Assembly (NCBI RefSeq): GCF_000012805.1
Contig: NC_007484.1
Coordinates: 60,001-92,000 of the forward strand
Direction: 5' to 3'
Length of the DNA: 32,000 bases
Source of the DNA: Nitrosococcus oceani ATCC 19707
GTDB taxonomy: Bacteria > Pseudomonadota > Gammaproteobacteria > Nitrosococcales > Nitrosococcaceae
Part shown: piece after piece, positions 1-26,928 of the stretch
How the letters are laid out: every line of letters starts with the position of its first letter
How positions within the stretch are numbered: position 1 is the stretch's first letter
Translations under genes and position numbers: made by a program
The notes under the pieces: model-generated
What the model saw: the letters and a program-made list of their open reading frames with translations, nothing else
Databases searched by the model: none
Told to the model about the DNA's origin: nothing

Positions 1-72
1 CAAGAAAGCCTGTTCCAGACCAGACTGGTTCCCGCCGAAGCGGGCTCCGGCAGGCTATTCGACGAAGAACTG

Positions 73-2832
73 GTGGCTGGTTCGGATGGGCCTGTAAAGT
101 GTCTTGGTCTTGAGTTTGAAAACGACGAAGCCCGTCGCACCCACTTTACCGAGGAGCTGCGCAAGAAGCTGCAGGACCCGGAGTTCCGCAAGATCGAAGG
201 TTTTCCCATCGGCAGCGACGAGGACATCCTGAACCTGAGTGATCCGCCATATTACACCGCCTGCCCGAACCCATGGATCGCCGACTTCATCACCGAGTGG
301 GAGGCGCAAAAGCCGGAACAGCCCGAAGGCTATCACTATCACCGTGAGCCTTTTGCCGCCGATGTCAGCGAAGGAAAAAACGACCCGATTTACAATGCCC
401 ACTCTTATCATACCAAAGTGCCGCACAAGGCAATCATGCGGTACATCCTCCACTACACGGAGCCAGGAGACATCGTTTTTGACGGCTTCTGTGGTACTGG
501 CATGACAGGAGTGGCCGCGCAGATGTGTGGCGACCGTGAAGTGGTCATGTCGCTCGGCTACCAGTTGAAGCCGGACGGGACCATTTTGCAGGAAGAGATG
601 GACGAAGATGGCAAAAAGGTTTGGCGACCATTTTCAAAACTGGGCGTCCGCAGAGCCGTACTGAACGACCTTTCACCGGCGGCGACGTTCCTTGCGCATA
701 ACTACAACCTTTATGTTGATACGGCATCATTTGAAAATGAAGCTAAGAAATTCATCAAAATAATCGAGCGAGAATGTGGATGGATGTATGAAACAACTCA
801 TACAGACGGGGTGACCAAGGCGAAAGTGAACTACACAATCTGGTCAGATGTATTTGTCTGTCCTGATTGCACTAATGAGATTGTATTCTGGGATGTTGCA
901 GTCGACAAAGAATCTGAGACAGTAAACGATGAGTTTCAATGTCCTAATTGCCAGACCAGCTTAACAAAGCGCAATATGGACCGTGCTTGGGTTACCACTT
1001 ATGACCGATTCTTGGGAGAGACGATTCGGCAGGCCAAGCAGATACCTGCTTTGATCAATTATAGCGTTGGTGGGAAACGATATGAGAAGAAACCTGACGA
1101 GGGTGACTTCGCAATTTTGGAGAAGATAGAAAACGAAGGATTAGACGGATGGTTTCCCATCAATCGCATGATTGAGGGGCATGAGTCTAGGAGAAATGAT
1201 CCGGTTGGTATCACGCACACTCATCACTTTTATTCACCTCGAAATCTATCAGTGATGTCGAAGATTTTGGATTTGGCTGACAAATCTGAATTTACTCCCT
1301 TCAAATTCGGTTTTCTGAATACCTCTTGGCACGCCACGCAGATGAGGCAATACAACCCAGGTGGCGGGCACAGACCTAGAACGGGTACTTTGTATATGCC
1401 TTCCATCCATAGTGAAGGTAACATGATTCCCGTTTACAAGAAAAAGCTGAACCAGCTTGTTCAGTTTTATAAAGTCAAGTCTCATCGAAATAGGGTTGCC
1501 ATTATTCAGACCATGTCGTCTACGGTGGAATCATCTATCGAAGCGGGTTTGGACTATGTATTCATTGATCCGCCTTTCGGCGCAAATCTGAACTACTCAG
1601 AACTAAATTCAATATGGGAGGCATGGCTTAAAGTAAGTACGAATAATGCCGAGGAGGCAATTGAGAATAGGTCACAGAACAAGGGGATTGATGAATACCG
1701 ATCTCTTATGACTCAGTGCTTTCGACAGGCATACAACCAATTGAAACCTGGGCGCTGGATGACTGTAGAGTTTTCTAATACAAGCGCTGGTATTTGGAAC
1801 AATATTCAGACGGCAATATCAGACGCTGGATTTATTGTCGCGAATGTCTCTGTTCTAAATAAAAAGCAGGGGTCGATAATGGCTTACACTACCCCCACTG
1901 CTGTCAAACAAGACCTCGTTATCTCAGCCTACAAACCCAACGGCGGTTTTGAAGAGCGCTTTCAGAAAGAGGCGCAAACCGAAGAAGGTGTGTGGGATTT
2001 TGTCCGAACCCACCTAAAGTATCTGCCGGTCACCAAGCAACAGGGAGCCTTGCTGCAGTTCGTCCCGGAACGCGATCCGCGCATCCTGTTCGACCAAATG
2101 GTGGCCTACTACGTCCGCAAGGGCTACCCCGTGCCGATCTCGAGCCAGGAGTTCCAGATTGGGCTGTCGCAGCGTTTCATCGAGCGCGACGGCATGTTTT
2201 TCCTGCCGGATCAGGTGGCCGAATACGACCGCAAGAAGATGACCTCGGGCGAACTTAAGCAGATGTCCATGTTCGTCTCTGACGAGGCATCCGCCATCCA
2301 GTGGCTCCACCAGCTCATCAAGGAAAAGCCGCAGACCTTCTCCGACATCAATCCGCAGTTTATGCAGCAGCTCGGCGGCTGGAGCAAAAACGAGGCCCAG
2401 CTCGACCTGCGTGAACTGCTGAACCAAAACTTCCTCAGCTACGACGGCAAAGGCCCGGTACCCGAGCAGATCCACGCCTACCTCTCCACCAATTGGAAAG
2501 AACTGCGCAACCTGCCCAAGGACGACCCGACTCTGGTCGCCAAGGCCCGCGACCGCTGGTACGTGCCCGATCCAAATAAGGCGGGCGACCTGGAGAAACT
2601 GCGCGAGAAGGCACTGCTCAAGGAGTTCGAGGAATACAAAGAGGTCAAAAAGAAACTCAAGGTCTTCCGCCTGGAAGCTGTCCGCGCCGGATTCAAGAAA
2701 GCCTGGCAGGAACGCGACTACGCCGTCATCGTCGCCGTGGCCGACAAGATCCCCAACAACGTCCTGGAAGAAGATCCCAAGCTGCTCATGTGGTACGACC
2801 AGGCGGTAACAAGAATGGGAGGCGGTGACTAG
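73..2832 (+). CDS. pglXI: BREX type 3 DNA methyltransferase, PglXI-like (N6/N4-type MTase with a large Zn-ribbon-containing insert)
   Basis: 919-aa ORF. The frame stays open back to nt 1 and nt 73 is GTG, so the true start may lie upstream of the window. AdoMet-binding motif FDGFCGTGMTG (aa ~136). Catalytic-type motif IDPPFG (aa ~499), plus an N-terminal SDPPYY (aa 56-61). CPDC...CPNC four-Cys ribbon at aa ~263-293. It lies directly upstream of an SNF2 helicase and PglZ, as in the published type 3 BREX gene order. Confidence 0.8.
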   Translation: MAGSDGPVKCLGLEFENDEARRTHFTEELRKKLQDPEFRKIEGFPIGSDEDILNLSDPPYYTACPNPWIADFITEWEAQKPEQPEGYHYHREPFAADVSEGKNDPIYNAHSYHTKVPHKAIMRYILHYTEPGDIVFDGFCGTGMTGVAAQMCGDREVVMSLGYQLKPDGTILQEEMDEDGKKVWRPFSKLGVRRAVLNDLSPAATFLAHNYNLYVDTASFENEAKKFIKIIERECGWMYETTHTDGVTKAKVNYTIWSDVFVCPDCTNEIVFWDVAVDKESETVNDEFQCPNCQTSLTKRNMDRAWVTTYDRFLGETIRQAKQIPALINYSVGGKRYEKKPDEGDFAILEKIENEGLDGWFPINRMIEGHESRRNDPVGITHTHHFYSPRNLSVMSKILDLADKSEFTPFKFGFLNTSWHATQMRQYNPGGGHRPRTGTLYMPSIHSEGNMIPVYKKKLNQLVQFYKVKSHRNRVAIIQTMSSTVESSIEAGLDYVFIDPPFGANLNYSELNSIWEAWLKVSTNNAEEAIENRSQNKGIDEYRSLMTQCFRQAYNQLKPGRWMTVEFSNTSAGIWNNIQTAISDAGFIVANVSVLNKKQGSIMAYTTPTAVKQDLVISAYKPNGGFEERFQKEAQTEEGVWDFVRTHLKYLPVTKQQGALLQFVPERDPRILFDQMVAYYVRKGYPVPISSQEFQIGLSQRFIERDGMFFLPDQVAEYDRKKMTSGELKQMSMFVSDEASAIQWLHQLIKEKPQTFSDINPQFMQQLGGWSKNEAQLDLRELLNQNFLSYDGKGPVPEQIHAYLSTNWKELRNLPKDDPTLVAKARDRWYVPDPNKAGDLEKLREKALLKEFEEYKEVKKKLKVFRLEAVRAGFKKAWQERDYAVIVAVADKIPNNVLEEDPKLLMWYDQAVTRMGGGD

Positions 2833-3705
2833 ATGCTGATCCCTATTGGCACCATTAGAAGTAATTGCAATGGCTTTGACGCCATCGCTGAAATTGCGGT
2901 CAAAACGAAAAATGTTTGGTTGGATTCTGTTGAATTCGATCTTTCATTCTGCAGTTTTTTCGAGGCCAATATGGCGGCACCGCTATATGCCGTTATTGCG
3001 CGGCTTCGTGATGAGCTGAATGATGTGACCATTACCAATGTGCCAGCAGGAGTAAGTACAATTCTTCGGAAAAACAAATTCTTGAGCGTATTCAGTCAGC
3101 CTGAGTTGACAGACACCAATCAGACAACACTACCATTCAAGATTCTTAAACTTACCGCTGGAGATCAGTTTAACGATTATCTTGATACTTATATGCGAGG
3201 AAGAGGTATTCCGGCCATGTCGGAAGCATTAACCAAACGCTTTAGGCAAAGTCTGTTCGAAATATTTCTGAATGCGACCATTCATTCTCAATCGAAAGCC
3301 GGGATTTTTGTCTGCGGGCAATTTTATCCAAATAAGCATCGACTGGATTTTACCATTGCCGATGCTGGAGTCGGGATCAGGGAAAACGTACGAAGATATA
3401 CTCGGAAACAAAAACTCAATTCCTGCAAGGCCATTGAATGGGCTATGACAGAGGGCAATACCACAAAAACCGGAAATCAGCCGGGAGGTCTTGGATTGAA
3501 GCTCATCAAAGATTTTATTCAGATGAATGGCGGAAAAATTCAGGTTGTATCAAGGTACGGATACTACGATTTCTCTGCAAATGGTGAGTCTATTCGAAAA
3601 ATGAGCAACGATTTCCCCGGAACTTGCATAAATATTGAAATTAACACTGAAGATACAAGCAGTTACTGCTTGAAGTCAGAACTGAAAAGTGAAGACATCT
3701 TCTAG
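2833..3705 (+). CDS. GHKL-superfamily (histidine-kinase-like / SpoIIAB-RsbW-like) ATP-binding protein with an uncharacterised ~140-aa N-terminal region
   Basis: Bergerat-fold boxes are visible: N box FLNATIHS, G1 box IADAGVGI, G2 box GNQPGGLGLKLI. The ATG at 2833 abuts the pglXI stop (TAGATG at 2830-2835). A 60-nt sample at 2881-2940 has 24/60 G+C. Confidence 0.7.
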   Translation: MLIPIGTIRSNCNGFDAIAEIAVKTKNVWLDSVEFDLSFCSFFEANMAAPLYAVIARLRDELNDVTITNVPAGVSTILRKNKFLSVFSQPELTDTNQTTLPFKILKLTAGDQFNDYLDTYMRGRGIPAMSEALTKRFRQSLFEIFLNATIHSQSKAGIFVCGQFYPNKHRLDFTIADAGVGIRENVRRYTRKQKLNSCKAIEWAMTEGNTTKTGNQPGGLGLKLIKDFIQMNGGKIQVVSRYGYYDFSANGESIRKMSNDFPGTCINIEINTEDTSSYCLKSELKSEDIF

Positions 3706-3722
3706 CGATTTAAGGAGTTACT

Positions 3723-4097
3723 ATGAACGATCAAGTCAAAATAAAGGTTGCGGATCTGATAGGCAGTTCGCTCTGCATATCCGCCGAGGATGGCCAGAAA
3801 GTATTCGGCAAGGTAGAGCAACTGGTGAGAGAGGGGAAGCAGGTTACCATTTCATTTGAAAATGTAACTATGCTGATCTCGCTCTTTCTCAATGTGGCAA
3901 TTGGTCAGCTCTATGGTTCTTTTGGTGAGGAAACTATTCGAGCTCAGTTGAAAGTTGAGGGACTTTCCTCTGATGACATGGAACTGCTCAAGCGTGTTGT
4001 TGATAATGCAAAGAAGTATTATTCCAACAAAAAATCTTATGATGACGCGTGGCTGGAGGAAGACAACAATCTGGAGGAAGACAACAATGAAGAATAA
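3723..4097 (+). CDS. STAS-like (DUF4325-type) small protein, possible anti-anti-sigma-like partner of the upstream ATPase
   Basis: 124 aa. AAGGAG Shine-Dalgarno at 3712-3717. The pattern V..ISFENVTMLISLFLNVAIGQL resembles the core of STAS-like DUF4325 proteins, which typically sit beside an ATP-binding protein. Acidic repetitive tail EEDNNLEEDNNEE. Confidence 0.55.
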   Translation: MNDQVKIKVADLIGSSLCISAEDGQKVFGKVEQLVREGKQVTISFENVTMLISLFLNVAIGQLYGSFGEETIRAQLKVEGLSSDDMELLKRVVDNAKKYYSNKKSYDDAWLEEDNNLEEDNNEE

Positions 4098-4638
4098 GGC
4101 TTATGATCTGTCCTCCTATTCCTTCAGTTCAGATGAGCAGGTTCTCGTTGATACAAATGTCTGGCTTTACCTGTTCCCTGCACCAGGAAATCCGCCACAT
4201 AATTTTGCCCAACAATATTCGACTGCTTTTGCAAACTTGGTGTCTGCACAAGCTCGGCCTGTTCTCGATCCAATGGTTTTGAGCGAATACCTTAACCGGT
4301 ACATAAGAATCGAGTGGGAAGGACATTATAGATCCCACTATCCTAAATTTAAGGATTTCAGAAACTCGGCAGATTTCTCAACAGTTGCATCATCCGCAGA
4401 AACCTTTGCCAAAAGGATCCTAAGTTTCTGCCAAATTCATTCAATACCTGCCAACGAACTGGATCTTAATCAGGCATTGTCTGACTTTTCGACCGGTGGA
4501 GTCGACTTTAACGATGCTCTCTTGGTGGATATCTGTAAAAAGAGGAATATCAAATTGATGACCAACGACGGTGATTTCCAGGATGGCGGCATCGAAGTAT
4601 TAACCACAAATCCACGCCTTTTACGAGCTTGTCCATAA
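4087..4638 (+). CDS. PIN-domain protein (putative ribonuclease/nuclease effector)
   Basis: The ORF-track entry 3955..4638 was trimmed to the internal ATG at 4087 (MKNKAYD...). The upstream part overlaps the STAS gene out of frame. N-terminal VLVDTNVWLYLF (first PIN acidic residue) and C-terminal LMTNDGDF (last PIN acidic motif). It overlaps the STAS stop by 11 nt. Confidence 0.65.
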   Translation: MKNKAYDLSSYSFSSDEQVLVDTNVWLYLFPAPGNPPHNFAQQYSTAFANLVSAQARPVLDPMVLSEYLNRYIRIEWEGHYRSHYPKFKDFRNSADFSTVASSAETFAKRILSFCQIHSIPANELDLNQALSDFSTGGVDFNDALLVDICKKRNIKLMTNDGDFQDGGIEVLTTNPRLLRACP

Positions 4639-4648
4639 AGGATTCACT

Positions 4649-7546
4649 TTGGAATCAATGCCTTGGCAATACAGCACCGTTCATAACAGCGCCTGTAAGG
4701 TCATCGAAGAACAGACCTTATGGGGGCAGGCCGTGTGCCGTATCTGGTTGCCGAACCAGGACGCGGTGGTGCGCGTGCCCCGCTCCGCCTTACGGCCGCT
4801 GAGTGCCGACCTGCAACCGGAGATCGAGGCTGGACGCATTGCCTATGTGGCCGCCGCAGCCAAGGTGGCCGAGGTGCTCGAAGGCTCCACCAGCGCCACT
4901 GACGGTCATGTATTGCTGGCTCCCATGGAGTCCAATGTTATCCCGCTGCCGCACCAGATCCACGCCTTGTCCCGGGCTATCTCCGGCGACCGTGTGCGCT
5001 ACCTGTTGGCCGACGAGGTGGGCCTCGGCAAGACCATCGAGGCCGGTCTAGTCATGCGCGAGCTCAAGCTGCGCGGACTGGTTCGGCGAATCCTGGTCGT
5101 CTCTCCCAAAGGCATCGCTACCCAGTGGGTGGCGGAAATGCAGACCCACTTCAATGAGCAGTTCCAGCTCGTGCTGGGTGATGACATCAGCACCTTGCAG
5201 CGCCTGGCCCCAGGGGCGGACCACCGGAACTCAGCCTGGTCGATGTTCGATCAGGTCATCGTTCCCCTGGATTCGGTCAAGCCCATGGACAAGCGGCGGG
5301 GTTGGACCGCCGGGCGCGTTGCCGAATACAATCGCAGCCGGTTCGAGGATCTGATCACTGCTGGTTGGGATCTGGTAGTGGTGGACGAAGCGCACCGCCT
5401 GGGTGGCAGTACCGATCAGGTCGCCCGCTATAAGCTCGGCAAGGGCCTGGCGGAGGCCGCGCCCTATGTACTGCTCCTTTCGGCTACGCCCCACCAGGGG
5501 AAGACCGATGCTTTCCATCGCTTGATGAACCTGCTGGATGAGGACGCCTTCCCGGATATGGACAGCGTTTCCCGCGACCGGGTGGCTCCTTACGTCATCC
5601 GCACGGAAAAACGGAAGGCCATCGATGCCGATGGCAAGCCCCTCTTCAAAGCCCGGCGCACGCAGATGGCCCCGGTAGTCTGGGAGAGCCGTCATCACCT
5701 GCAGCAGCTCCTCTATGAGGCGGTGACCGACTATGTGCGCGAGGGCTACAACCAGGCTCTGCGCGAGAAGAAGCGCCACATCGGCTTTCTGATGATCCTG
5801 ATGCAGCGCCTGGTGGTCTCTAGCACCCGAGCAATCCGCACCACTTTGGAGCGTCGGCTCGCGGCACTTAAGGAAGGCGAGCAGCAAGCCAGCCTGCGCC
5901 TAGCGGAGCTGGAAAACAGTGCGGGGGGATCGGAAAACACAGACGATGAAATAACCGAGCTCTACGACATGGACGGCCAGGAGTTGCTCGATGAACTGCT
6001 GAAATCCCATGTGTTGGCTCTACAGAGCGAAGGCAGTCATGTGGAGACTTTGCTAGATGCGGCGGTTCGCTGCGAGCAGGCGGGGCCGGACGCCAAGGCC
6101 GAGGCGTTGATCGAGTGGATCTACGAGTTGCAAGCCGAGGAAAACGAGCCGGATCTGAAAGTGTTGATCTTCACTGAGTTCGTACCGACCCAGGAGATGC
6201 TGAAGGAGTTTCTGGAAGCCCGGGGAATCTCGGTGGTCACCCTGAACGGCTCCATGGATATGGAGGTACGTGGGGCAGCCCAGGATACCTTCCGTAAATC
6301 GCACCGCGTGCTGCTTTCCACCGATGCGGGCGGTGAGGGTCTAAACTTGCAGTTCGCCCATGTCATCATCAACTACGACATCCCCTGGAACCCGATGCGG
6401 TTGGAGCAGCGAATCGGCCGCGTGGACCGTATCGGCCAGCCCAAGATGGTGCGAGCGATCAACTTCGTGTTTGAAGATTCGGTCGAGTTTCGCGTTCGCG
6501 AAGTGTTGGAACAGAAGCTCTCGGTGATCTTTGACGAGTTCGGCATCGATAAGACTGGTGACGTGCTTGACTCAGCTCAGGCCGGCGAGTTGTTCGAGGA
6601 TGTGTTCGCGCAGGCGTTCGCCAACCCTGATGGTATTGAAACTTCCGTCGATCAGACGGTGACTCGGATTCGCGATGAGATTCAGCAGGTGCGGGAGTCC
6701 TCCGCCATCTATGGCATTTCCGAAGAACTGAATGTGCAGGCGGCTGAGCAGCTGCGCTCCCATCCGCTGCCCCACTGGGTGGAGCGGATGACGGTGGGCT
6801 ATCTCAATTCCCACGGCGGCACAGCCAGCCGTAAACGCTCCTGGTGGGATCTAAATTGGCCGGACGGTCAGGAGCATCGCAAGGCCGTGTTCAATGCCCG
6901 GGAAGCGGACCGGCTGACCGATGCAACCCTGCTCAATCTTGAAAACAGCCGTGTCCGTGGGCTGGCCTTGAACCTGCCGCAGATCGCGGCGGGCCAGCCA
7001 TTGCCTTGCGTAAGCGTGAGCGGTCTGCCAACCAGCATCTCCGGTCTCTGGGGACTCTTTGAGATCCGCCTTCAGGCCGGAATGCACCAGAAGACACAAC
7101 TCCTGCGCATCCCCATGGTGCGGCGCGGTTATGTCAGCGTGTTCCTGAGCGAGGAAGGCAAACTGTTTCTGCCCACGGCCCGGCATATCTGGGATGCGCT
7201 GCAGACAGCGGAAGCCCAGGTGCAAGCCACCCTCGGGCGAGATGAATCCATCACCGCCCATGAGCGTTTGCGGATTGCTGCCGAACAGGCCGGACAGGAG
7301 CTGTTTGACGCCTTGCAGCAGGTACATCTTGCCGCTGTGGCTTACGAGGAGGAACGCGGAATTGTCTCCTTTGCCTCGCGCCGCAAGGCCATCGAACGGG
7401 TTGGATTGCCGGAGGTGCGGCAATTCAGGCTGGCCCGTTGCGACGCAGAAGAATCCGAATGGCGACATGAACTGCAATCGGCGCGGCAGATCGTGCCGGA
7501 AATCCGGTCGCTGCTGATGCTGCGGATTATCAAAAGAGGCGCTTAA
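4649..7546 (+). CDS. brxHII: SNF2-family (SF2) helicase, BREX type 3 BrxHII
   Basis: Helicase motifs LLADEVGLGKTIEAG (I), VVVDEAHRL (II), LLLSATPHQG (III), LLSTDAGGEGLNLQ (V), WNPMRLEQRIGRVDRIGQ (VI). Start is TTG 4649 or ATG 4658. The stop overlaps the pglZ ATG (TAATG at 7544-7548). Confidence 0.85.
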   Translation: MESMPWQYSTVHNSACKVIEEQTLWGQAVCRIWLPNQDAVVRVPRSALRPLSADLQPEIEAGRIAYVAAAAKVAEVLEGSTSATDGHVLLAPMESNVIPLPHQIHALSRAISGDRVRYLLADEVGLGKTIEAGLVMRELKLRGLVRRILVVSPKGIATQWVAEMQTHFNEQFQLVLGDDISTLQRLAPGADHRNSAWSMFDQVIVPLDSVKPMDKRRGWTAGRVAEYNRSRFEDLITAGWDLVVVDEAHRLGGSTDQVARYKLGKGLAEAAPYVLLLSATPHQGKTDAFHRLMNLLDEDAFPDMDSVSRDRVAPYVIRTEKRKAIDADGKPLFKARRTQMAPVVWESRHHLQQLLYEAVTDYVREGYNQALREKKRHIGFLMILMQRLVVSSTRAIRTTLERRLAALKEGEQQASLRLAELENSAGGSENTDDEITELYDMDGQELLDELLKSHVLALQSEGSHVETLLDAAVRCEQAGPDAKAEALIEWIYELQAEENEPDLKVLIFTEFVPTQEMLKEFLEARGISVVTLNGSMDMEVRGAAQDTFRKSHRVLLSTDAGGEGLNLQFAHVIINYDIPWNPMRLEQRIGRVDRIGQPKMVRAINFVFEDSVEFRVREVLEQKLSVIFDEFGIDKTGDVLDSAQAGELFEDVFAQAFANPDGIETSVDQTVTRIRDEIQQVRESSAIYGISEELNVQAAEQLRSHPLPHWVERMTVGYLNSHGGTASRKRSWWDLNWPDGQEHRKAVFNAREADRLTDATLLNLENSRVRGLALNLPQIAAGQPLPCVSVSGLPTSISGLWGLFEIRLQAGMHQKTQLLRIPMVRRGYVSVFLSEEGKLFLPTARHIWDALQTAEAQVQATLGRDESITAHERLRIAAEQAGQELFDALQQVHLAAVAYEEERGIVSFASRRKAIERVGLPEVRQFRLARCDAEESEWRHELQSARQIVPEIRSLLMLRIIKRGA

Positions 7547-9540
7547 TGAGTAGTTGGCGAGACGCTATCCTGAACGACTTTGTACCCAACGTCAGCAAGC
7601 TGACCCTGGTCGCAGACCCGGATTGCCTGATGACCGAGGAAAAGCTGGCCTTGGAACTTCGCGGGCGCGGCTTCGACCTGATCGAGTTCAGTGACCCGGT
7701 CGAATTCAGGTATGTCTATGAGTCCAAGTACCGTTCGATCTGGGACCGGGGTGAGCACACCGATCTGGTGGTGGTCCTCCGCTTGCAAGATGCGGAGCTG
7801 GAATCATTGCCTTATGATTTATTGCAAGTCGGAAGAAAACTCTCTTTTAATCTTGGTGAGCTCTTTCCTTATCTGAGCTATCCGGTCATCGAAAAGCTGG
7901 ACCGCGCCCTTTTGGATGTCCTCTTTGAGGCGCAGAGGAAAACACCCTCTGACCGTCTAGGGGACAATGCCACTAAGGACTTCATCCTGCGACATGTGTT
8001 TGGTATTGCGCCTGAATTGATAGTGAGTGAGGTGGAACTCTTACGATTGCTGCTCCGCTTGCATTACGGCAAAGTCCAGCTTCCTCGTATCTTATCTGAT
8101 CGGCTTGTGCAGGTGCTTAAGGGGCAGGGTGCTTTCCCTACTTGGCCGCTAGATGAGATCGTGCCGGACGAAGAAGCTTTTTTTGCCTTTATCCAGGAAC
8201 GCTGGCCAGTGTTTTTGAGCAAGCTTGAGCCGGGCAATGAGGTGCGAGAAAGATCGCTTGAGGAAATCCTCAACTATCCTGGGCCTAGCGTGCTTCCTTT
8301 TGATCATCAGGACATCAGAGTCTATATGGACAATCTGTTTATTGAAGGGAAACTTACGCCAATTCAGAAGCCAGAGGTTGCTATTGATGCCGGGTCCTGG
8401 ATTCGTTGCGGTGTTATCGAAGCCAGCGCCGGTGATGACGAAATGCGCATTTCCCGTCTTTTCGGGCTGGTGGAGAAGAGCCTGCCTACATCGGAATCCC
8501 GGTATTCAGATTGGATCACCTTTGCGCTGAAATGGGCCGAGTTATCTGCCTTGGTTCATTGTGGCTCCAACAGAGAGGATAAGGCTCGGCTTCTGCAAAC
8601 CGACAATGCGCTGAATGCCACCTTTGCCCGGTGGCTGAGTGTCCACTATGCCAGCCTCATTAATCTGCCTCCGAACAATCCTGCGATGGTGCACCATGTG
8701 CCACGGCGTTTAGCCCGGGATCTGGAAAATGCCAAGAATAGCCGTGTTGCTTTGCTGGTGGTTGATGGGTTAGCGCTGGATCAATGGGCCACCATTCGCC
8801 CGATTCTCCAGGAGCGGGACCGCAGCCTTATTATGCGCGAGTCGGCGACCTTCGCCTGGATTCCCACGCTGACTTCCGTGTCCCGGCAAGCGATTTTTTC
8901 CGGCAAGCCACCGCTCTATTTTCCGTCATCCATTAAGTCGACCCATAAGGAAGAAAAGCTCTGGAAGCAGTTCTGGGAAGGCCATGGCCTGTCCCGGCTG
9001 GATGTTGCCTACCAGCGCGGCCTTGGCGACGGTGATGCTGCAGGCGTCCTCGACTCGGCAATCCACCCCGGGAAGACCAAGGTGGTGGGGCTGGTCGTGG
9101 ACAAGGTCGATAAAATCATGCACGGCATGCAGCTCGGCTCGGCCGGGATGCACAACCAGATTAAACAGTGGTGCCGGGGTGGTTTCCTCGGATTACTCAT
9201 CGGCTACTTACTTGATCACGGCTATGAAGTTTGGATGACATCCGACCACGGTAATATCGAGTGCCAGGGCAAGGGTCGTCCCTCTGAAGGAGTCACCGCT
9301 GAAACCCGCGGTGAACGGGTTCGAGTTTATCCCACTGCGGAATTGCGGGCTCAAGTGGCCAGCAAATTTTCTTTTGCCCATGAATGGCTGCCGGTAGGGT
9401 TGCCATCAGATTATTTCCCGCTTGTTGCCGGTGGCAGCAACGCATTTGCTACCCCTGACGAAGCCATCGTCGGCCATGGCGGCATTACCCTTGAGGAAGT
9501 TATCGTGCCCTTGGTTAAATTTGAGAGGAAAACACGGTGA
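7546..9540 (+). CDS. pglZ: PglZ-domain protein (alkaline-phosphatase superfamily), BREX core component
   Basis: 664 aa. LLVVDGLALDQW and WMTSDHGNIE motifs are typical of the PglZ / alkaline phosphatase fold. Translationally coupled to both neighbours. Confidence 0.85.
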   Translation: MSSWRDAILNDFVPNVSKLTLVADPDCLMTEEKLALELRGRGFDLIEFSDPVEFRYVYESKYRSIWDRGEHTDLVVVLRLQDAELESLPYDLLQVGRKLSFNLGELFPYLSYPVIEKLDRALLDVLFEAQRKTPSDRLGDNATKDFILRHVFGIAPELIVSEVELLRLLLRLHYGKVQLPRILSDRLVQVLKGQGAFPTWPLDEIVPDEEAFFAFIQERWPVFLSKLEPGNEVRERSLEEILNYPGPSVLPFDHQDIRVYMDNLFIEGKLTPIQKPEVAIDAGSWIRCGVIEASAGDDEMRISRLFGLVEKSLPTSESRYSDWITFALKWAELSALVHCGSNREDKARLLQTDNALNATFARWLSVHYASLINLPPNNPAMVHHVPRRLARDLENAKNSRVALLVVDGLALDQWATIRPILQERDRSLIMRESATFAWIPTLTSVSRQAIFSGKPPLYFPSSIKSTHKEEKLWKQFWEGHGLSRLDVAYQRGLGDGDAAGVLDSAIHPGKTKVVGLVVDKVDKIMHGMQLGSAGMHNQIKQWCRGGFLGLLIGYLLDHGYEVWMTSDHGNIECQGKGRPSEGVTAETRGERVRVYPTAELRAQVASKFSFAHEWLPVGLPSDYFPLVAGGSNAFATPDEAIVGHGGITLEEVIVPLVKFERKTR

Positions 9541-10307
9541 TGGACAAACGGCACGAGGCCATTGGTATCAAACAGGCCATTCGCTATGAGTGGATGCAAA
9601 AAGCCGCTTACCTCCTTCTTGCCGGGCTGGATGCTAAGGCTATTCGACAGGAACTCCATGACTACTTGAGCGATCGCATGGGCAGCGGTGTGCGTGCAGA
9701 ACGCAGTACAGAAGCGAGGTCATTCGCTGTCACGATTTTAATGAACATATGGGTTACCCCCGACCCGGTATTGGAAACATTGAGAAACGATGCTCTGCCC
9801 TATCTGGCACAGGGCCGAAGCGCTGAACTTGCGGTCCACTGGTCGATGATCGGCGCGGCGTACCCCTTTTGGTTCAATGTGGCGCGCCAAACAGGGCGTT
9901 TGCTAGCGCTCCAAGATCAGGTCACGATGAAACAGGTCTCTAGGCGTTTGATTGAGGTCTACGGTGAGCGCCAAACCGTGAGCCGCAATGCTCAGTTTGT
10001 CGTTCGCTCTTTCGCTTTCTGGGGCGTTCTCAAAGATACTGCACAGCAAGGTTGTTATCAAAAGATAGTATCAGCGCCTATTTCCGATCTTAACTTAGTA
10101 TCTTTAATGCTCGAGGCAGCCCTACATGCCATCCCCGAGGGCAAGGGAACTTTAGACCTGCTATTAAATAACCCGGCATTCTTTCCATTCCAGCTCCCGC
10201 TGATGACAGGCGACTTTATCGGACAGCGTAGGGAGCATATTGAGATAATCCGCTATGGGTTGGATGATGAGCTGTTGATGCTGAAGAAAAAACAAGGAGA
10301 GCGCTAA
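9537..10307 (+). CDS. brxA: BrxA-like (DUF1819-type) protein, terminal gene of the type 3 BREX operon
   Basis: Start GTG 9537 or ATG 9540 overlaps the pglZ TGA (GTGATG). The ~255-aa size and the position after pglZ match the brxA slot of type 3 BREX. I cannot verify the domain by eye, so the call is mainly positional. Confidence 0.5.
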   Translation: MMDKRHEAIGIKQAIRYEWMQKAAYLLLAGLDAKAIRQELHDYLSDRMGSGVRAERSTEARSFAVTILMNIWVTPDPVLETLRNDALPYLAQGRSAELAVHWSMIGAAYPFWFNVARQTGRLLALQDQVTMKQVSRRLIEVYGERQTVSRNAQFVVRSFAFWGVLKDTAQQGCYQKIVSAPISDLNLVSLMLEAALHAIPEGKGTLDLLLNNPAFFPFQLPLMTGDFIGQRREHIEIIRYGLDDELLMLKKKQGER

Positions 10308-10593
10308 AAACTGGGCGGTTATCAGGCAAGGCAGCTTATTGTGGGCTGTTGCACTTATCAATCGGCATAAACAGATAGATCGTTTGGAAAGAGCGTCTTC
10401 TGAGTACTATGGAGCCTTGGAAGCTATAGGGATGTAGCCTCCAGAATGGACTGAAAGCGGGTGGCAAGGGGCAGACGCGGGCCGTTACCGGTAAGGGGTT
10501 ATAGAGGTTAAAGAAGGTTAGCGGTACAAAGCAATAAGGCAAAATTAAAGCAAAGACAAAGGGTTAATTAGGAAAATAACCTCAGAAGGGTCG

Positions 10594-10803
10594 CTCAAAG
10601 GTCAATCATTGGTCGTCCAAAAGTCAAGTTTCAGTAGCTCAAAGGTCAAGCCTTAAGTATCCAAAAACTCAGGTCTCAGCAGCTTAACGGTCAATGCTTG
10701 GAAACCCAAAAGCCAATCCTTGAGCACCCAAGGTTCAAGTTTCGGTAGCTCAAAAGTCAAGCCGGGTAGCCCAAAGGTCAAGTCTTGGTAGTTCAAAGGT
10801 CAT
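10594..10803. repeat. Array of ten direct, degenerate ~22-bp iterons (core YYCAAARGTCAA), oriV-like
   Basis: Core copies start at 10594, 10616, 10638, 10660, 10683, 10705, 10727, 10749, 10770 and 10792, a period of 21-23 bp. The copies are contiguous with no unique spacers. The last copy overlaps the trfA stop codon. An A+T-rich stretch at 10540-10585 lies immediately upstream. Confidence 0.75.
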
Positions 10804-11636
10804 GCTTTCTTCTCTGCTCTCATCACATAGACGAGATTGCCTTCTATTCGCCAGTCGCTCAGAAAGTCCACTGCCTTGAGTTCGTTAAGGGCCCCTTTAA
10901 GATTAACTTTAAAAGTTTTCAAGAGACCGTCAGCGCTGCCAGACCCTTTCCATAGGGTCTCCACCTTCATCGGATAGGGTCGAGCATGGCTAGAATAAAG
11001 GCCATGCAGCCACTTGGCTATGGGGCCAAGCTGGTGTCTCATCGCCCATTCAAGCCGGGTGTAGTGGACATCCCCAAACAAGACCACCATCTCCGATGAA
11101 ATCCAAACTTTCCAAGGCCCTCGGCCGTGATCCCGCTCGAATTTTTGGATAAGGGGTAGAGTCACGCTTTTCCCTAGCCGGTGACTACTGACGGTCAAGG
11201 CCGTGGCGACCATGCGCTCTAGGCTGATTTGAAGCCGCTGGTAGCTTTGCCCCTTGATGGCCCAACCCACTCCTTTAAGTAGGGCGTAGGGTTTGAATTC
11301 CACACACTTACCGAGTGGTCGCGCCTTAGCCTCATGCATGATTTGGAGCCATATATCTTCATCATCCTGGCGCAGCTCTTGCCCGCGGTAACTGATACGG
11401 CCATCTCCCACGACCACAATCGGCACGCCTTCCAAGTAAGCTCTGGCCTGCTTCTTGTTCTTCACCGAAAAGAGCGCCGAGCGAACCATCTCATTAGGGA
11501 CACCGCGTTGCCCCTTGCCCCAACAAGGGAGCAAGGGGATGATTTTAGCCGTTTCTGCTTCTCTCTTGGCTTTGGCTTCACGACGAGTTTTGGCTTCTTG
11601 TGCCATCCGAGCGATTTTGTTCGTGATATGCTCCAC
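10800..11636 (-). CDS. trfA: TrfA-family plasmid replication initiator
   Basis: 278 aa. It aligns by eye with RK2 TrfA blocks: LPCWGKGQRGVPNEMVRSALFSVKNKK; ISYRGQELRQDDEDIWLQIMHEAKARPLG; VVLFGDVHYTRLEW; LYSSHARPYPMKVETL. It is adjacent to the iteron array. Confidence 0.85.
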   Translation of the reverse strand: MEHITNKIARMAQEAKTRREAKAKREAETAKIIPLLPCWGKGQRGVPNEMVRSALFSVKNKKQARAYLEGVPIVVVGDGRISYRGQELRQDDEDIWLQIMHEAKARPLGKCVEFKPYALLKGVGWAIKGQSYQRLQISLERMVATALTVSSHRLGKSVTLPLIQKFERDHGRGPWKVWISSEMVVLFGDVHYTRLEWAMRHQLGPIAKWLHGLYSSHARPYPMKVETLWKGSGSADGLLKTFKVNLKGALNELKAVDFLSDWRIEGNLVYVMRAEKKA

Positions 11637-12988: not shown

Positions 12989-13324
12989 GTGATGAGATGT
13001 TCAATTGATTTGCGCAAACGAGTAATCGATTTTGTAAGGGGCGGTGGAAGCAAGGCGGAAGCGGCCCGGAGATTTCAGGTAGGCCGCGCGAGCATTTATC
13101 GCTGGTTGTCGCAGGATGATGCGCTGTGTTACGAGCGTCCCGGCCCTCGCCGTTCACACAAGCTGGACTGGGAGGCTTTACGGGTCCATGTGGAAGACAA
13201 GGCTGATCTCACCTATAAAGAACGCGCCCGGCATTTTGGCGTTTCGTATTACTGTATTTGGCATGCGATGCACAAAATGGGGTTAACCCGTAAAAAAAAT
13301 GACGGGGTACACGCAGCGCTGTAA
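12989..13324 (+). CDS. IS630-family transposase, N-terminal HTH part (orfA)
   Basis: DLRKRVIDFVRGGGSKAEAARRFQVGRASIYRWL helix-turn-helix. Ends shortly after the A8 run at 13292-13299. Confidence 0.7.
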   Translation: MMRCSIDLRKRVIDFVRGGGSKAEAARRFQVGRASIYRWLSQDDALCYERPGPRRSHKLDWEALRVHVEDKADLTYKERARHFGVSYYCIWHAMHKMGLTRKKNDGVHAAL

Positions 13325-13823
13325 TATGAAAAGAAAGAGCTTTCTTCGTCTTCGTGAACGCTATCGCCGCCGCGGCAAAAGATTTGTCTATCTTGATGAA
13401 AGCGGTTTTGAGCCGGAGGTTTCCCGTCGTTACGCTTACGCTCCAAAGGGGCGGCGTGTTTATGGTCTGATCTCCGGTCATCGCAGACCGCGAACCTCTT
13501 TATTGGCCGCCCGTATGGATGAAGGCTTTGAAGCGCCGTTTCTATTTGAGGGAACCTGTAACACGGCTGTGTTCAATGCATGGCTGGAAAAAGAGCTTTG
13601 CCCCTTGCTCAACAGCAACCACATTGTCATCATGGATAATGTTCCGTTCCACAAAGCCGTTTCTTCACGTGAAATCATCAAAAAAACAGGGGCGGGAATT
13701 TTATTCCTCCCCCCTTATTCCCCTGACTTTAACCCCATAGAAAAAGACTTCGGAAATATCAAAAAAATCAGAGAATACAACGAACACGAAACCCTTGAGA
13801 ATATCGTTGCAGCGTATCAGTAA
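13299..13823 (+). CDS. IS630-family transposase, DDE catalytic part (orfB)
   Basis: FVYLDESGF, IVIMDNVPFHK and LFLPPYSPDFNPIEKDF are the DDE motifs of IS630/Tc1-mariner type transposases. It lies in the +1 frame relative to orfA. Confidence 0.75.
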   Translation: MTGYTQRCNMKRKSFLRLRERYRRRGKRFVYLDESGFEPEVSRRYAYAPKGRRVYGLISGHRRPRTSLLAARMDEGFEAPFLFEGTCNTAVFNAWLEKELCPLLNSNHIVIMDNVPFHKAVSSREIIKKTGAGILFLPPYSPDFNPIEKDFGNIKKIREYNEHETLENIVAAYQ

Positions 13824-14778: not shown

Positions 14779-15159
14779 ATGACTTACTCATCTGATTTTC
14801 ACTATAAAGTTCTATCCGTTCGCAAGAAGGAAGGAGTTACCATTGCCGAGGCGGTGTCTGGGTTTTGTGTGGGCGTAGCGAGCGTTACACGTTGGCTAAA
14901 AGGGCCTGAGCCTAAACCGAGCCGAAATAAACCAGCGACAAAAATTGACATGGACGTAATGGCTGGTGATATGTTCGGGACAATCCGGATGCGTATCAAT
15001 ACGAGCGAGCGCAGCCGTTTTGGTGTGCGTGTTCAGGGAATCAACTATGCTCTGCACCGTCTGGGCGTTAGCTATAAAAAAAAGCTTGATGCACCCAAAG
15101 GGATGCGAAGGCGCACGGCGCGCCTTCCAGACTCTCATCACATGGCACAGACTGAATAA
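14779..15159 (+). CDS. IS630-family transposase, HTH part (orfA) of copy 2
   Basis: VTIAEAVSGFCVGVASVTRWL helix-turn-helix. An A8 run at 15076-15083 lies inside the orfA/orfB overlap. Confidence 0.6.
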   Translation: MTYSSDFHYKVLSVRKKEGVTIAEAVSGFCVGVASVTRWLKGPEPKPSRNKPATKIDMDVMAGDMFGTIRMRINTSERSRFGVRVQGINYALHRLGVSYKKKLDAPKGMRRRTARLPDSHHMAQTE

Positions 15160-15625
15160 ACGCCCGATTGTCTACATTGATGAGAGCGGTTTTGCGCACG
15201 ACATGCCACGGACACACGGTTATGCGCCCAAGGGGCTACGGTGTTTTGGAGAGCGAGACTGGGATGCCAAAGGGCGTACCCATGCGATGGGGGCCTTAAT
15301 CGGTAAAGCATTACTGAGCGTGGCTTTGTTTAGCGTGGCTTTGTTTAATGTGAATGTAAATGCAGATGTTTTTACCGCGTGGGTGGCACAGGATTTATTG
15401 CCTAAACTACCCGCGCAAAGCATTGTGGTGATGGATAATGCAACCTTTCACAAACGCGAGGATACGCAAAACATGATCCGAAACGCTGGAGATGGGCTGC
15501 TTTACCTACCTGCATATTCCCCAGATTTAAACCCCATCGAACAAAAATGGGCGCAAGCCAAAGCTTTGAGAAGGCAAACACACCGCTCAATTGATGAAAT
15601 CTTTACAGAAAATCAATTTATATGA
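14966..15625 (+). CDS. IS630-family transposase, DDE part (orfB) of copy 2
   Basis: IVYIDESGF, IVVMDNATFHK, LYLPAYSPDLNPIEQKW. It contains an in-frame 15-bp tandem duplication (SVALFSVALF). The portion upstream of the A8 run is probably not translated in this frame. Confidence 0.65.
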   Translation: MICSGQSGCVSIRASAAVLVCVFRESTMLCTVWALAIKKSLMHPKGCEGARRAFQTLITWHRLNKRPIVYIDESGFAHDMPRTHGYAPKGLRCFGERDWDAKGRTHAMGALIGKALLSVALFSVALFNVNVNADVFTAWVAQDLLPKLPAQSIVVMDNATFHKREDTQNMIRNAGDGLLYLPAYSPDLNPIEQKWAQAKALRRQTHRSIDEIFTENQFI

Positions 15626-25016: not shown

Positions 25017-25071
25017 TAAGACTCCGCGAAATAGGAACGGCATGTTCCTCTAATATTGATGTAGAGTTTAG

Positions 25072-25677
25072 CTAGTTTTGCTGGCGGGGCTGGAGTTGGG
25101 AACGGCAGCTCACCCAGGGATTATCCGGGATCGCCAAGCGCCAGGGAGCATCCCGATGTTCAGGATGGGCATAGGCAATCCCCACCCGCGGCCCCGCCAA
25201 TAGCGCTGCCACCGGGGTTCCCCGGCGGACCTCCAGCCCCCCCGGTTCATAAAGGGGATGATGATTCCAGCTTAAATCCAGCCCCAACGCCGCGCCCACT
25301 TTTCCCGGCCCGGTCAGTAAGCCTGGCTTTATTTTACCCCGGCGGCGGCGCTGGATGAGATCAAGGCCGGCTACCGGCTCGCAGGCGCGAATCAATACCG
25401 CCGCGGCCTGTCCTTCTTCCCCTGTCACCAGATTAAGAAGATGATGGATGCCATAGCACAGATAAAGGTAGACTCGCCCCGGCGGCCCCCAGAGGGGTTC
25501 ATTCCGCAAGGTCTGGCCATGGCGGCCATGGTTGGCGGTATCCTCCGGCCAGCGGTAGGCTTCCACCTCCGTGATCCGCAACACCACCTGTTCCCGGCAG
25601 AGCGAGGCCCCCAGCAAATCGGCGGCCACCTCCAGGGCATCCCGGGCATAGAAGCGGGGGGGTAGTAGATCTGTCAT
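25072..25677 (-). CDS. mpg: DNA-3-methyladenine (alkylpurine) glycosylase, Mpg/AAG family
   Basis: LPPRFYARDALEVAADLLG, ITEVEAY, HGRHGQTLRNEPLWGPPGRVYLYLCYGIHHLLNLV and TGPGKVGAALGL match the Mpg family. Start placed at ATG 25677, since the track start at 25728 is TTG. Same strand as the UvrA-like gene and 56 bp upstream of it. Confidence 0.8.
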   Translation of the reverse strand: MTDLLPPRFYARDALEVAADLLGASLCREQVVLRITEVEAYRWPEDTANHGRHGQTLRNEPLWGPPGRVYLYLCYGIHHLLNLVTGEEGQAAAVLIRACEPVAGLDLIQRRRRGKIKPGLLTGPGKVGAALGLDLSWNHHPLYEPGGLEVRRGTPVAALLAGPRVGIAYAHPEHRDAPWRLAIPDNPWVSCRSQLQPRQQN

Positions 25678-25909
25678 AGCCAAGACACAAGTACTAAAGC
25701 CACCAAAATTCCTAAATATTACGGGCAAGTGTTCAAAGGGGAAAGACTGCTTTAACCTGGGGAGGGGATGAAATAACCAATCTCAAATATTCCCGGTGCT
25801 CCCCACGCTGAGGGTAAGTAGCTTTGTTATTTGTTAAATGAAGCCCAGAGGGATTTGTTTATATTATAAAGCAGGCGGCACCATAAAGAAGGATAGATTA
25901 GGACGTAAA

Positions 25910-26765: not shown

Positions 26766-26928
26766 CAAATAGTTAGTGGCTATAGTGAGGCAAACTATCA
26801 TTATACACGTATTCTTTCCAAGCAAAGAGTTACTGGAGAATCATTTTTATGGCTCCAAGTTAGTCCGAGAAGGTTTTCCTGAATATAAAAACAGACTGCA
26901 TTGTGGCGCCCACCAACTTGAACTTGTA

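Follow-up and report, generated by a model that had tools for sequence, protein, structure and literature searches.

What are the three genes that lie between pglXI and brxHII in Nitrosococcus oceani ATCC 19707? We conclude, with a probability that we put at about 0.87, that they are a vapKSC operon, a three-component, kinase-controlled toxin-antitoxin/abortive-infection module carried as cargo in the N. oceani pglXI-brxHII junction. The system is already known: it has been named, its structure has been solved, phage defence has been shown for the Escherichia homologue, and this organism's locus stands in a published table. An initial annotation of the same DNA had guessed that a kinase/STAS pair gates a PIN nuclease and had stated that no named defence system with this gene trio was known to its author. 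Essentially, its mechanistic guess is right for the homologous trio and its novelty claim is wrong, since the trio corresponds to VapKSC, a system that has both a name and a characterisation.

Architecture of the locus

The window analysed here is a stretch of 32,000 nucleotides, and all of the genes discussed are on its forward (+) strand. The type 3 BREX methyltransferase gene pglXI (1-2832) enters the window without its 5' end; it is annotated as encoding 947 aa in N. oceani contigs, with a start a few bases before window position 1, and its product matches Pfam N6_N4_Mtase and, over 5-917, the PADLOC PglXI model (E = 0). Three co-directional genes follow, as the initial annotation had described: vapK (2833-3705; 290 aa, a STAS + GHKL Ser/Thr kinase), vapS (3723-4097, stop 4095-4097; 124 aa, a STAS-like DUF4325 antitoxin) and vapC (4087-4638, stop 4636-4638; 183 aa, a PIN-domain toxin), each with an ATG start. 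Downstream lie brxHII (4649-7546), which encodes the SNF2-type helicase of type 3 BREX (PADLOC BrxHI|BrxHII model PDLC02500, E = 0; Pfam SNF2-rel_dom and Helicase_C), pglZ (7546-9540; PADLOC PglZ, E = 0; Pfam PglZ, 4.4e-42) and brxA (9537-10307; PADLOC BrxA, E = 3.8e-122).

The trio is welded into this gene series, and every junction described previously was recovered when the letters were read again. The pglXI stop codon TAG (2830-2832) abuts the vapK ATG at 2833 with zero gap. The 17-nt gap between vapK and vapS holds a ribosome-binding site read from the sequence, AAGGAG (3712-3717), 5 nt upstream of the ATG at 3723. The vapC ATG at 4087 falls inside the end of vapS, giving an 11-nt overlap, and brxHII begins 10-19 nt after the vapC stop, depending on whether its start is TTG 4649 or ATG 4658. 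Across positions 1-11000 neither promoter-like sites (7 versus 7.5 expected) nor terminator-like sites (11 versus 11.5 expected) rise above chance, and the same scan places no promoter-like site in the 10-19 nt ahead of brxHII. These signals are consistent with one operon and provide no evidence of a separate transcription unit for the trio.

The three genes also differ from their surroundings in composition. The G+C values of 40.0% at 2881-2940 and 70.0% at 4741-4800 that had been sampled earlier were reproduced, and over whole genes the G+C content is 41.9% in vapK, 42.9% in vapS and 43.1% in vapC versus 50.8% in pglXI, 60.6% in brxHII, 53.9% in pglZ and 51.4% in brxA. Elsewhere on the N. 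oceani BREX island are a TrfA-like replication gene, IS630 copies and an integrase fragment, and a gene of the Schlafen-minimal HK-wHTH type is located between brxC and pglXI.

Correspondence with VapKSC

Chambers, Rani, Min, Villa and Corbett (EMBO J 2026; bioRxiv Feb 2026; PMC13373217) gave the trio the name vapKSC and provided a structure, PDB 9z7o; their experimental system was the VapKSC of Escherichia sp. E4736. There, VapC is toxic, and VapS binds and inhibits it, acting as its antitoxin, and leaves the active-site Mg2+ of VapC in place (PMC13373217). VapS proteins contain a Ser/Thr that is absolutely conserved in the family (Ser48 in Escherichia), and the phosphomimetic substitution S48E abolishes both VapC binding and antitoxin activity (PMC13373217). 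The Escherichia operon confers approximately 2-log protection against phage Bas42, for which D28, S48 and F54 are all needed; that VapK, which was insoluble, phosphorylates VapS directly and is activated by ssDNA was inferred by the authors (PMC13373217).

The N. oceani genes have the same order as those of Escherichia (kinase, STAS antitoxin, PIN toxin), homology is detectable for all three products, and the residues S53/S48 of VapS, D22/D28 of VapC and F42/F54 of VapK are equivalent. The two systems differ in that their sequences have diverged (32% identity in VapK), in that the N. oceani copy is embedded in a type 3 BREX operon and in that N. oceani VapS contains an additional LEEDNN repeat. 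The window VapK is ABA56602.1 and the window VapC is ABA56604.1 of N. oceani ATCC 19707, a strain that we take to be the same as N. oceani C-107. The published list of 289 vapKSC operons includes N. oceani loci, and its Dataset EV3 flags N. oceani C-107, C-27 and NS58, N. watsoni and two Akkermansia strains as brex_type_III (PMC13373217). Within 10 kb of the Escherichia vapKSC genes, PADLOC identifies no system (PMC13373217).

No model in PADLOC-DB v2.0 (2023) represents the trio: VapK gives only a GHKL-region match to a DrmA model (5e-7) and a match to PDC-M43B (0.026), and VapS and VapC are without any match. The silence of a defence finder of that era thus reflects the date of its library rather than novelty. 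Among NCBIfam models, the trio reaches histidine-kinase, SpoIIAB and VapC families only far below threshold. Pfam confirms the three assignments that the initial annotation had proposed to check, namely HATPase_c, DUF4325 and PIN.

VapK, the predicted kinase

VapK matches Pfam HATPase_c above the gathering score (2.5e-7). BLASTP against the Escherichia VapK sequence, taken from the AF3 file of PMC13373217, aligns the two proteins at 32% identity (E 1e-39) over residues 33-268, which takes in both domains. The N, G1 and G2 boxes noted previously are invariant or nearly so in 42 homologues: in the N box (3259-3273) E143 and N147 are both invariant, in the G1 box (D177-G181, 3361-3375) D177 and G179 are, and in the G2 box (G218-G221, 3484-3495) G219 and G221 are invariant and G218 is found in 41 of 42. 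The full-length model (pLDDT 70) gives weak Foldseek matches to GHKL proteins (Hsp90, GyrB and Topo VI; best E 2.4e-3) and none that is kinase-specific.

Ahead of the GHKL region, approximately residues 1-100 (2833-3132) form a STAS-like domain according to the structure model and profile matches. Foldseek pairs the modelled domain with RsbS, SpoIIAA, RsbV, MlaB and TM1442 (probability approximately 1.0, TM approximately 0.6, rmsd 2.2-2.8, E only 1e-2), and profile searches return TM1442, prestin STAS and RsbS below threshold (E 0.012-0.3); an hhalign comparison of the domain with the VapS family gives a probability of 11%. The model thus predicts a STAS fold with a Foldseek probability of about 1.0, on E-values that fall short of the usual thresholds. 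Within this domain Phe42 (2956-2958) aligns to Escherichia VapK F54. The position is Phe in 34 of 42 homologues and Trp in 6 of 42, and by analogy we regard the region around it as a putative ssDNA-binding site.

VapS and VapC, the predicted antitoxin and toxin

The sole Pfam match of VapS is DUF4325 (3.4e-18); in the protein a STAS domain is followed, at the C-terminal end, by a short helix and an acidic tail. It aligns to Escherichia VapS (PDB 9z7o_A, E 3.6e-16) such that Ser53 (3879-3881), already singled out from its location in the fold, falls exactly on Ser48; it is the predicted phospho-acceptor. Among 40 homologues this position is Ser in 28, Thr in 11 and Pro in 1, and the copy with Pro has an internal stop. 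Residues 86-124 align to the C-terminal region of Escherichia VapS, up to residue 103. This tail carries a perfect 18-bp tandem duplication, two copies of CTGGAGGAAGACAACAAT at 4053-4088 (TRF score 72, 100% matches), which inserts the extra LEEDNN into the protein and doubles the GGAGG ahead of the vapC ATG. The duplication was not found in four aligned relatives or in any listed VapS from outside N. oceani (115-123 aa or pseudogene).

VapC matches Pfam PIN (3.5e-9) and, in a 28-bit phmmer match (E 1.6e-5), Escherichia VapC (PDB 9z7o_C). Its first acidic motif, one of the two from which a PIN nuclease had been proposed, is the one that aligns to the Escherichia catalytic Asp28, making Asp22 (4150-4152) the catalytic residue by alignment. 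The acidic residues D22, E67, D140, D143, D161 and D163 are unchanged across all 37 homologues compared.

A variable slot in type 3 BREX

Is the trio a part of BREX, or a passenger? Among 45 distinct related loci the kinase gene is present in every one, and the K-S-C order and spacing are kept in 40; 3 of the exceptions are truncated by a contig end. The operon also occurs without BREX nearby. In the lineage whose VapK shares 63% identity or more with that of the window, PglXI or BrxHII genes or fragments adjoin 12 of the 22 species-level loci. In four of the related loci an intact vapKSC is flanked by decayed fragments of PglXI, BrxF, BrxHII, PglZ or BrxA. For the majority of hosts examined, vapKSC is 5-10 points poorer in G+C than the DNA on either side.

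The junction was also tabulated from the side of BREX, as had been suggested. Of 80 metagenomic pglXI loci, 52 have a downstream brxHII match. The gap between the two genes ranges from 5 to 8389 nt, with about 11 loci holding no cargo; vapKSC is present in only 3 of the 80, and the rest hold unrelated modules, so that the trio is ruled out as a universal part of type 3 BREX. Slot contents in other type 3 BREX loci include Gabija-like, Thoeris-like, ietAS and HEC-01/03 modules, among others. The pglXI-brxHII junction is a variable slot, a hot spot for the swapping of defence cargo, and we infer that vapKSC inside BREX is transcribed together with it but works independently, as a second-line module and not a BREX component.

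Embedded effectors of this general kind have precedents. The searched text of a 2026 BREX survey (NAR 2026, PMC12839542) describes nucleases within BREX operons flanked by core genes, including HNH, PD-(D/E)XK, OLD/TOPRIM, HEPN, Schlafen and, less often, PIN nucleases. In that text PIN RNases and Schlafen proteins are among the auxiliary or back-up effectors, and N. oceani has one of the Schlafen-minimal type as well as its PIN gene; a kinase/STAS partner of BREX PIN RNases is not mentioned there (STAS and GHKL, 0 occurrences).

Alternative readings of the trio

Kinases of the Bergerat fold that act on STAS proteins are known from two other settings, and each suggests another role for the pair. 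CapK-CapS shares the domain logic, combining a GHKL kinase that has a STAS domain with a STAS-domain partner that has a conserved Ser; the CapK kinase phosphorylates that Ser and is activated by ssDNA by way of an aromatic residue where its STAS and GHKL domains meet (W68), and both properties are predicted for VapK, whose position 42 is F/W. CapK-CapS pairs are located upstream of immune operons, often downstream of R-M (88/443; PMC13373217), and the N. oceani trio lies directly upstream of brxHII. The kinase/STAS pair could then be a transcriptional controller of brxHII-pglZ-brxA, genes that phosphorylation would de-repress after DNA damage, with the PIN gene incidental. We consider this very unlikely. 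CapK carries an HTH at its N terminus, CapS carries a wHTH at its C terminus, and the pair acts by de-repressing transcription, whereas the N. oceani trio lacks both DNA-binding domains and its predicted output is nuclease release. VapK begins straight at its STAS domain and aligns to Escherichia VapK from there on, the 124 aa of VapS are taken up by the STAS domain and a short helix, and neither protein has an HTH or wHTH match in Pfam at E <= 0.1. A PDB search with VapS (E <= 10) finds 9z7o_A and no CapS chain, the PIN gene stays with the pair in 40 of the 45 distinct loci, and the short gap before brxHII is free of promoter-like sites. The earlier suggestion that the trio regulates BREX itself is likewise unsupported, VapS being, unlike CapS, without a DNA-binding domain. 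The other setting is the sigma-factor switch of SpoIIAB-SpoIIAA and RsbW-RsbV, in which a Bergerat-fold Ser kinase sequesters the sigma factor and the antagonist is a STAS substrate whose phosphorylated Ser lies where helix 2 begins. GHKL kinase and STAS similarity, the Foldseek matches to SpoIIAA and RsbV and a weak NCBIfam spIIAB match to VapK (E 0.026) speak for such a switch, with the PIN gene unrelated to it. The probability that we would grant it is close to nil, as gene content effectively refutes it: the N. oceani locus has neither a sigma-factor gene nor a PP2C phosphatase gene, and the pair is linked to the PIN gene throughout the loci just counted. In addition, the TIGR01925 spIIAB match, at 14.4 bits, falls far short of the 135-bit cut-off of that model, and VapK, unlike the anti-sigma kinases of about 140 aa, has its own fused N-terminal STAS domain, proposed to serve in ssDNA sensing. 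In VapKSC it is the STAS protein that sequesters the effector, a PIN nuclease. What stands of the initial annotation is a kinase/STAS pair that gates a PIN nuclease, a back-up of the abortive-infection type, as the Escherichia system supports (PMC13373217); the logic is not that of a classical partner switch, in that the STAS protein and not the kinase holds the effector.

The final alternative accepts the toxin and antitoxin and differs over their purpose. Toxin-antitoxin modules are classic stabilising elements, and the trio could serve mainly for addiction, with post-segregational killing stabilising the BREX island or the mobile element that carries it and phage defence secondary or absent in this host. 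The replication gene, IS630 copies and integrase fragment on the island would suit such a role, as would the persistence of intact vapKSC beside decayed BREX remnants in several genomes, which indicates that the trio outlives its neighbours. For pure addiction, however, VapK would be superfluous, yet it is kept in every locus, and protection by the Escherichia homologue against Bas42 needs the putative ssDNA-binding residue of the kinase, which argues for activation by a signal and not for simple antitoxin decay. Addiction as the main role thus appears improbable to us, if less so than either of the regulatory switches; roles in addiction and in phage defence are mutually compatible.

With VapBC type II systems, VapKSC shares a PIN-domain VapC that is neutralised by a small protein encoded directly upstream in an overlapping gene. 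It differs in that the antitoxin has the STAS fold (DUF4325) instead of being an AbrB, RHH, PHD or HTH VapB, and in that release is proposed to proceed via phosphorylation and not antitoxin proteolysis. VapC-family NCBIfam models are reached only far below cut-off (22.7 versus 73.6 bits).

A model for VapKSC in N. oceani

By analogy, the N. oceani copy would behave like Escherichia VapKSC. In unperturbed cells VapS and VapC would form a 2:2 complex in which the nuclease is inactive, held off by the C-terminal helix of VapS near the VapC active site. We propose that ssDNA arising from phage infection or DNA damage would bind the STAS/GHKL interface of VapK near Phe42 and switch the kinase on, and that phosphorylation would then release VapC from VapS. 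The freed VapC would cut RNA, probably rRNA or tRNA, leading to growth arrest.

Coupling between first- and second-line defence has been raised for R-M and CapKS by the VapKSC authors (PMC13373217) and, in the searched text of the 2026 BREX survey, in general terms (PMC12839542). We offer as a speculation, and one more likely to be wrong than right by a wide measure, that vapKSC of the lineage linked to BREX may be coupled to it in function, and not be a passive passenger, as a two-layer device that restricts and then aborts, with ssDNA or nicks as the trigger and the junction as an exchange slot. If this were true, VapK would be triggered physiologically by ssDNA or nicks generated when PglZ and BrxHII act on phage DNA that lacks modification, phage inhibitors that stall BREX would be an alternative source of that trigger, and recombination at the pglXI-brxHII junction, as a dedicated slot, would exchange second-layer modules. 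The N. oceani locus offers a clean example from nature of a toxin-antitoxin module, probably gated by a kinase, that is co-transcribed inside a BREX operon, and loci of its type are convenient for asking whether BREX and abortive defence couple through ssDNA sensing.

Identification of the trio as VapKSC

What occupies the junction between pglXI and brxHII in the N. oceani BREX operon? PADLOC models recognise four BREX genes on the + strand with E from 0 to 3.8e-122, namely pglXI (to 2832), brxHII (4649-7546), pglZ (7546-9540), and brxA (9537-10307). Three further + strand genes lie after pglXI and before brxHII: gene 1 (vapK, 2833-3705), gene 2 (vapS, 3723-4097), and gene 3 (vapC, 4087-4638), which Pfam assigns to HATPase_c (2.5e-7, over the gathering score), DUF4325 'STAS-like' (3.4e-18), and PIN (3.5e-9), respectively. 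The initial annotation had placed three such genes here and called them GHKL, STAS-like, and PIN, and both claims are borne out. The junctions also read exactly as it described them: the pglXI TAG is followed directly by the vapK ATG (2832/2833), an AAGGAG (3712-3717) lies 5 nt upstream of the vapS ATG at 3723, vapS and vapC overlap by 11 nt (4087-4097), and 10-19 nt separate the PIN stop from the brxHII start. Its sampled G+C contents, 40.0% at 2881-2940 versus 70.0% at 4741-4800, were reproduced; at gene level the trio has 42-43% G+C versus 50.8% for pglXI and 60.6% for brxHII. Promoter- and terminator-like sites showed no excess over shuffled expectation.

PADLOC-DB 2.0 (2023) holds no model for the trio. 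A PDB sequence search matched gene 2 to 9z7o chain A, 'Escherichia VapS' (E 3.6e-16), and gene 3 to chain C, 'Escherichia VapC' (E 1.6e-5). The paper behind this entry (Chambers et al., EMBO J 2026, PMC13373217; bioRxiv 10.64898/2026.02.02.703251, Feb 2026) describes CapK/CapS, an ssDNA-activated pair of GHKL kinase and STAS repressor, together with vapKSC, a derived toxin-antitoxin operon of three genes. VapK consists of a STAS domain and a GHKL kinase, VapS of a STAS domain plus a short C-terminal stretch, and VapC of a PIN domain; VapS and VapC crystallised as a 2:2 complex (PMC13373217). The D28A mutation abolishes VapC toxicity, neutralisation by VapS is lost upon deletion of its C-terminal region or with S48E, and S48E also abolishes VapS-VapC co-purification (PMC13373217). 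The operon gives about 2-log protection against phage Bas42, which is gone in D28A, S48A, and VapK F54A (PMC13373217). VapK was insoluble, and its activation by ssDNA and direct phosphorylation of VapS were proposed from an AF3 model (PMC13373217).

The window VapK was aligned with Escherichia VapK, whose sequence came from the AF3 model file of PMC13373217; the 243-residue alignment has 32% identity (E 1e-39) and covers both the N-terminal and GHKL domains. The functional residues also correspond: VapK Phe42 lies opposite Phe54, VapC Asp22 opposite Asp28, and VapS Ser53 opposite Ser48, the last once the PDB alignment is corrected for the tag on the deposited chain, an 18-residue offset itself deduced from the alignment. 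Among 37-42 non-redundant homologues from the fetched loci, VapK does not vary at E143, N147, D177, G179, G219, and G221, 41/42 sequences retain G218, and 40/42 have F or W at position 42. VapC D22, E67, D140, D143, D161, and D163 are likewise invariant. At VapS position 53, 28 homologues have S, 11 have T, and one copy, which has an internal stop, has P.

The N-terminal domain of VapK was assessed by three comparisons. Its profile gave sub-threshold yet coherent STAS matches in the PDB (TM1442, 0.012; prestin STAS, 0.075; RsbS, 0.32). Residues 1-108 as modelled by AF2 (pLDDT about 80-85 across residues 1-80) matched stressosome RsbS/RsbR, SpoIIAA, RsbV, MlaB, TM1442, and SLC26 STAS domains with probability 0.98-1.00, TM about 0.55-0.65, and rmsd 2.2-2.8 A, but with E about 1e-2; matches of the full-length model (pLDDT 70) were weak and confined to GHKL proteins. 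By these comparisons the trio possesses every defining feature of VapKSC that sequence can address.

The trio is an already named and characterised system, although the initial annotation knew of no named system containing it, and its N. oceani locus has been listed before. Exact-sequence matches identify VapK as ABA56602.1 / WP_011330217.1 and VapC as ABA56604.1 of N. oceani ATCC 19707, and other N. oceani assemblies carry identical copies. PMC13373217 gives 289 vapKSC operons in all, and its Dataset EV3 has 7 rows with a BREX flag as read here, against 6 occurrences of 'brex' by word search; 'brex_type_III' within 10 kb is recorded for N. oceani C-107, C-27, and NS58, N. watsoni C-113, and Akkermansia muciniphila AMDK-1 and Akk2670. 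The N. oceani vapKSC was therefore already catalogued, BREX neighbour included. The position of vapKSC within the BREX operon is not discussed in the text of that paper.

A hypervariable cargo slot between pglXI and brxHII

Scanning metagenomes for PglXI by profile yielded 80 loci (L051-L130), and brxHII was detected downstream of pglXI in 52 of them. The two genes lie anywhere between 5 and 8389 nt apart, and in about 11 loci they are essentially contiguous (<=107 nt). Only three of the 80 carry vapKSC (L051, L066, L090). Other, unrelated occupants include an OLD-family nuclease with a UvrD helicase (Gabija-like, L065), ThsA-Macro with ThsB-TIR (Thoeris-like, L062), IetA with IetS (L068), HEC-01 A/B (AAA_21 and DUF4276, L103), HEC-03 with an RNA ligase (L055), an NsnB-like ATPase (L098), a Schlafen/AlbA_2-HATPase_c_4 protein (L064), a DUF3644 protein (L053), a weak PD-T7-3-like match (L074), and a large SF1 helicase (L096). 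Several slot proteins have no Pfam or PADLOC match, for example L098 14664-15719 (352 aa) and L062 2758-4140 (461 aa). The junction is a hypervariable cargo slot, and its varied content rules out the trio as a core BREX component, making it one of many interchangeable defence cargos. Auxiliary or 'back-up suicidal' effectors in BREX operons are a general phenomenon; PIN endoRNases, described as 'less commonly observed', are among them, as are Schlafen-minimal-HK-wHTH proteins (NAR January 2026, PMC12839542).

One slot can hold two modules: at L090 11771-14846, a HEC-01-like pair (412 and 219 aa) is followed by a truncated vapK fragment and after it intact vapS and vapC.

Relatives of vapKSC

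In a species-dereplicated genome collection, VapK relatives were found at 41 loci. Of the 45 distinct loci examined in total, 40 have an intact K-S-C trio, and a contig end truncates three of the remaining five. A close VapK lineage (>=63% identity; DNA identity up to 86%) extends over several phyla, with hosts in Desulfobacterota, Nitrosomonas, Caldisericota, Spirochaetota, Synergistota, Verrucomicrobiota, and a Thermoplasmata MAG. Type 3 BREX genes or fragments flank 12 of its 22 loci, most commonly in the order pglXI-vapKSC-brxHII (L011, L012, L014, L023, L028, Akkermansia L007, and Desulfobacter L009). The sole case in the other junction is Desulfamplus magnetovallimortis (L010 10001-11784; brxC-...-vapKSC-pglXI), whose VapK is 91% identical and of the same lineage. 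Distant VapK lineages (25-60% identity, mostly Bacteroidota) showed no BREX linkage in the loci examined. In most hosts examined the trio lies 5-10 G+C points under its flanks, consistent with a mobile cassette. At L016, L024, L033, and L048 an intact trio stands between decayed BREX remnants (short pglXI, brxF, brxHII, pglZ, or brxA fragments); it seems that the trio outlasts the surrounding operon or travels with the pglXI 3' end.

The trio at L048 is itself decaying. L010 has about 2 kb of extra cargo between pglXI and brxHII, and Desulfobacter (L009 9574-9996) has a 140-aa 23S_rRNA_IVP / bAvd-like four-helix-bundle gene between pglXI and vapK. Among phage-encoded relatives, gene 1 resembles phrog_3364 (1.4e-44) and gene 2 phrog_9989 (3.6e-7). 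The prophages Streptococcus phage Javan172 (L131 2893-4171) and phage LYGO9 (L132 2545-3734) encode HATPase_c (about 300 aa) and DUF4325 (99-114 aa) in moron positions adjoining integrase or lysin, with no PIN gene following; an HTH and M78-peptidase pair precedes the Javan172 genes. A Francisella prophage has the same arrangement (293 aa and a 112-aa DUF4325; PMC7924643).

The N. oceani operon and its island

A second cargo lies just upstream of the window, between brxC and pglXI (L001 5112-7160), and encodes a 555-aa SLFN_AlbA_2 / HATPase_c_4 / wHTH protein, of a Schlafen-type class noted as BREX-associated (PMC12839542), and a 118-aa YhcG_C (PD-(D/E)XK-like) protein. BrxHII is 86-93% identical to the Akkermansia and Nitrosomonas communis proteins, whereas PglXI, PglZ, and BrxA reach only 50-78%. 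The operon is a recombinational mosaic, and its best-conserved block consists of vapKSC and brxHII. A perfect 18-bp tandem duplication at 4053-4088 (CTGGAGGAAGACAACAAT twice), at the vapS 3' end and vapC start, extends the acidic VapS tail by LEEDNN and doubles the GGAGG before the vapC ATG. Among the VapS sequences listed it was confined to N. oceani, the others measuring 115-123 aa or representing a pseudogene.

Directly past brxA lies a TrfA-like replication initiator gene (10800-11636, - strand), with IS630-type transposase pieces further downstream (12989-13823, 14966-15625), placing the operon in a mobile-element-rich island. A 632-aa NERD-nuclease and UvrD-type helicase fusion (15986-17884, - strand) may be another defence-type gene. 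Beyond it are a protein of 1876 aa whose UvrA-like ABC ATPase modules are duplicated (UvrA_inter, UvrA_DNA-bind; within 19413-25728, - strand), an adjoining methylpurine-DNA glycosylase gene (25072-25728), and a truncated phage-type integrase gene (26136-26825).

Proposed mechanism

The initial guess that a kinase/STAS pair gates a PIN nuclease was remarkably accurate, down to Ser53, the equivalent of VapS Ser48. Domain content and gene linkage contradict its alternative, that the trio regulates BREX itself, and they likewise contradict a sigma-factor switch; an anti-sigma identity requires a sigma factor as well as a kinase of only about 140 aa, and the locus has neither. CapK/CapS requires HTH and wHTH domains that the window proteins lack, and VapBC a DNA-binding VapB, which the trio does not have. 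An addiction cassette is compatible with the persistence of the trio between BREX remnants, but leaves the conserved sensor kinase unexplained.

We consider the published VapKSC model, carried over to the N. oceani copy, to be the best explanation. A VapS2-VapC2 complex would hold the nuclease inhibited. VapK, activated by ssDNA, would phosphorylate VapS at Ser53, and the VapC thus set free would cleave RNA and arrest growth. Co-transcribed with BREX, the trio would constitute a second-line layer. One mildly novel possibility is a functional coupling in which BREX activity would be the source of the ssDNA signal for VapK.
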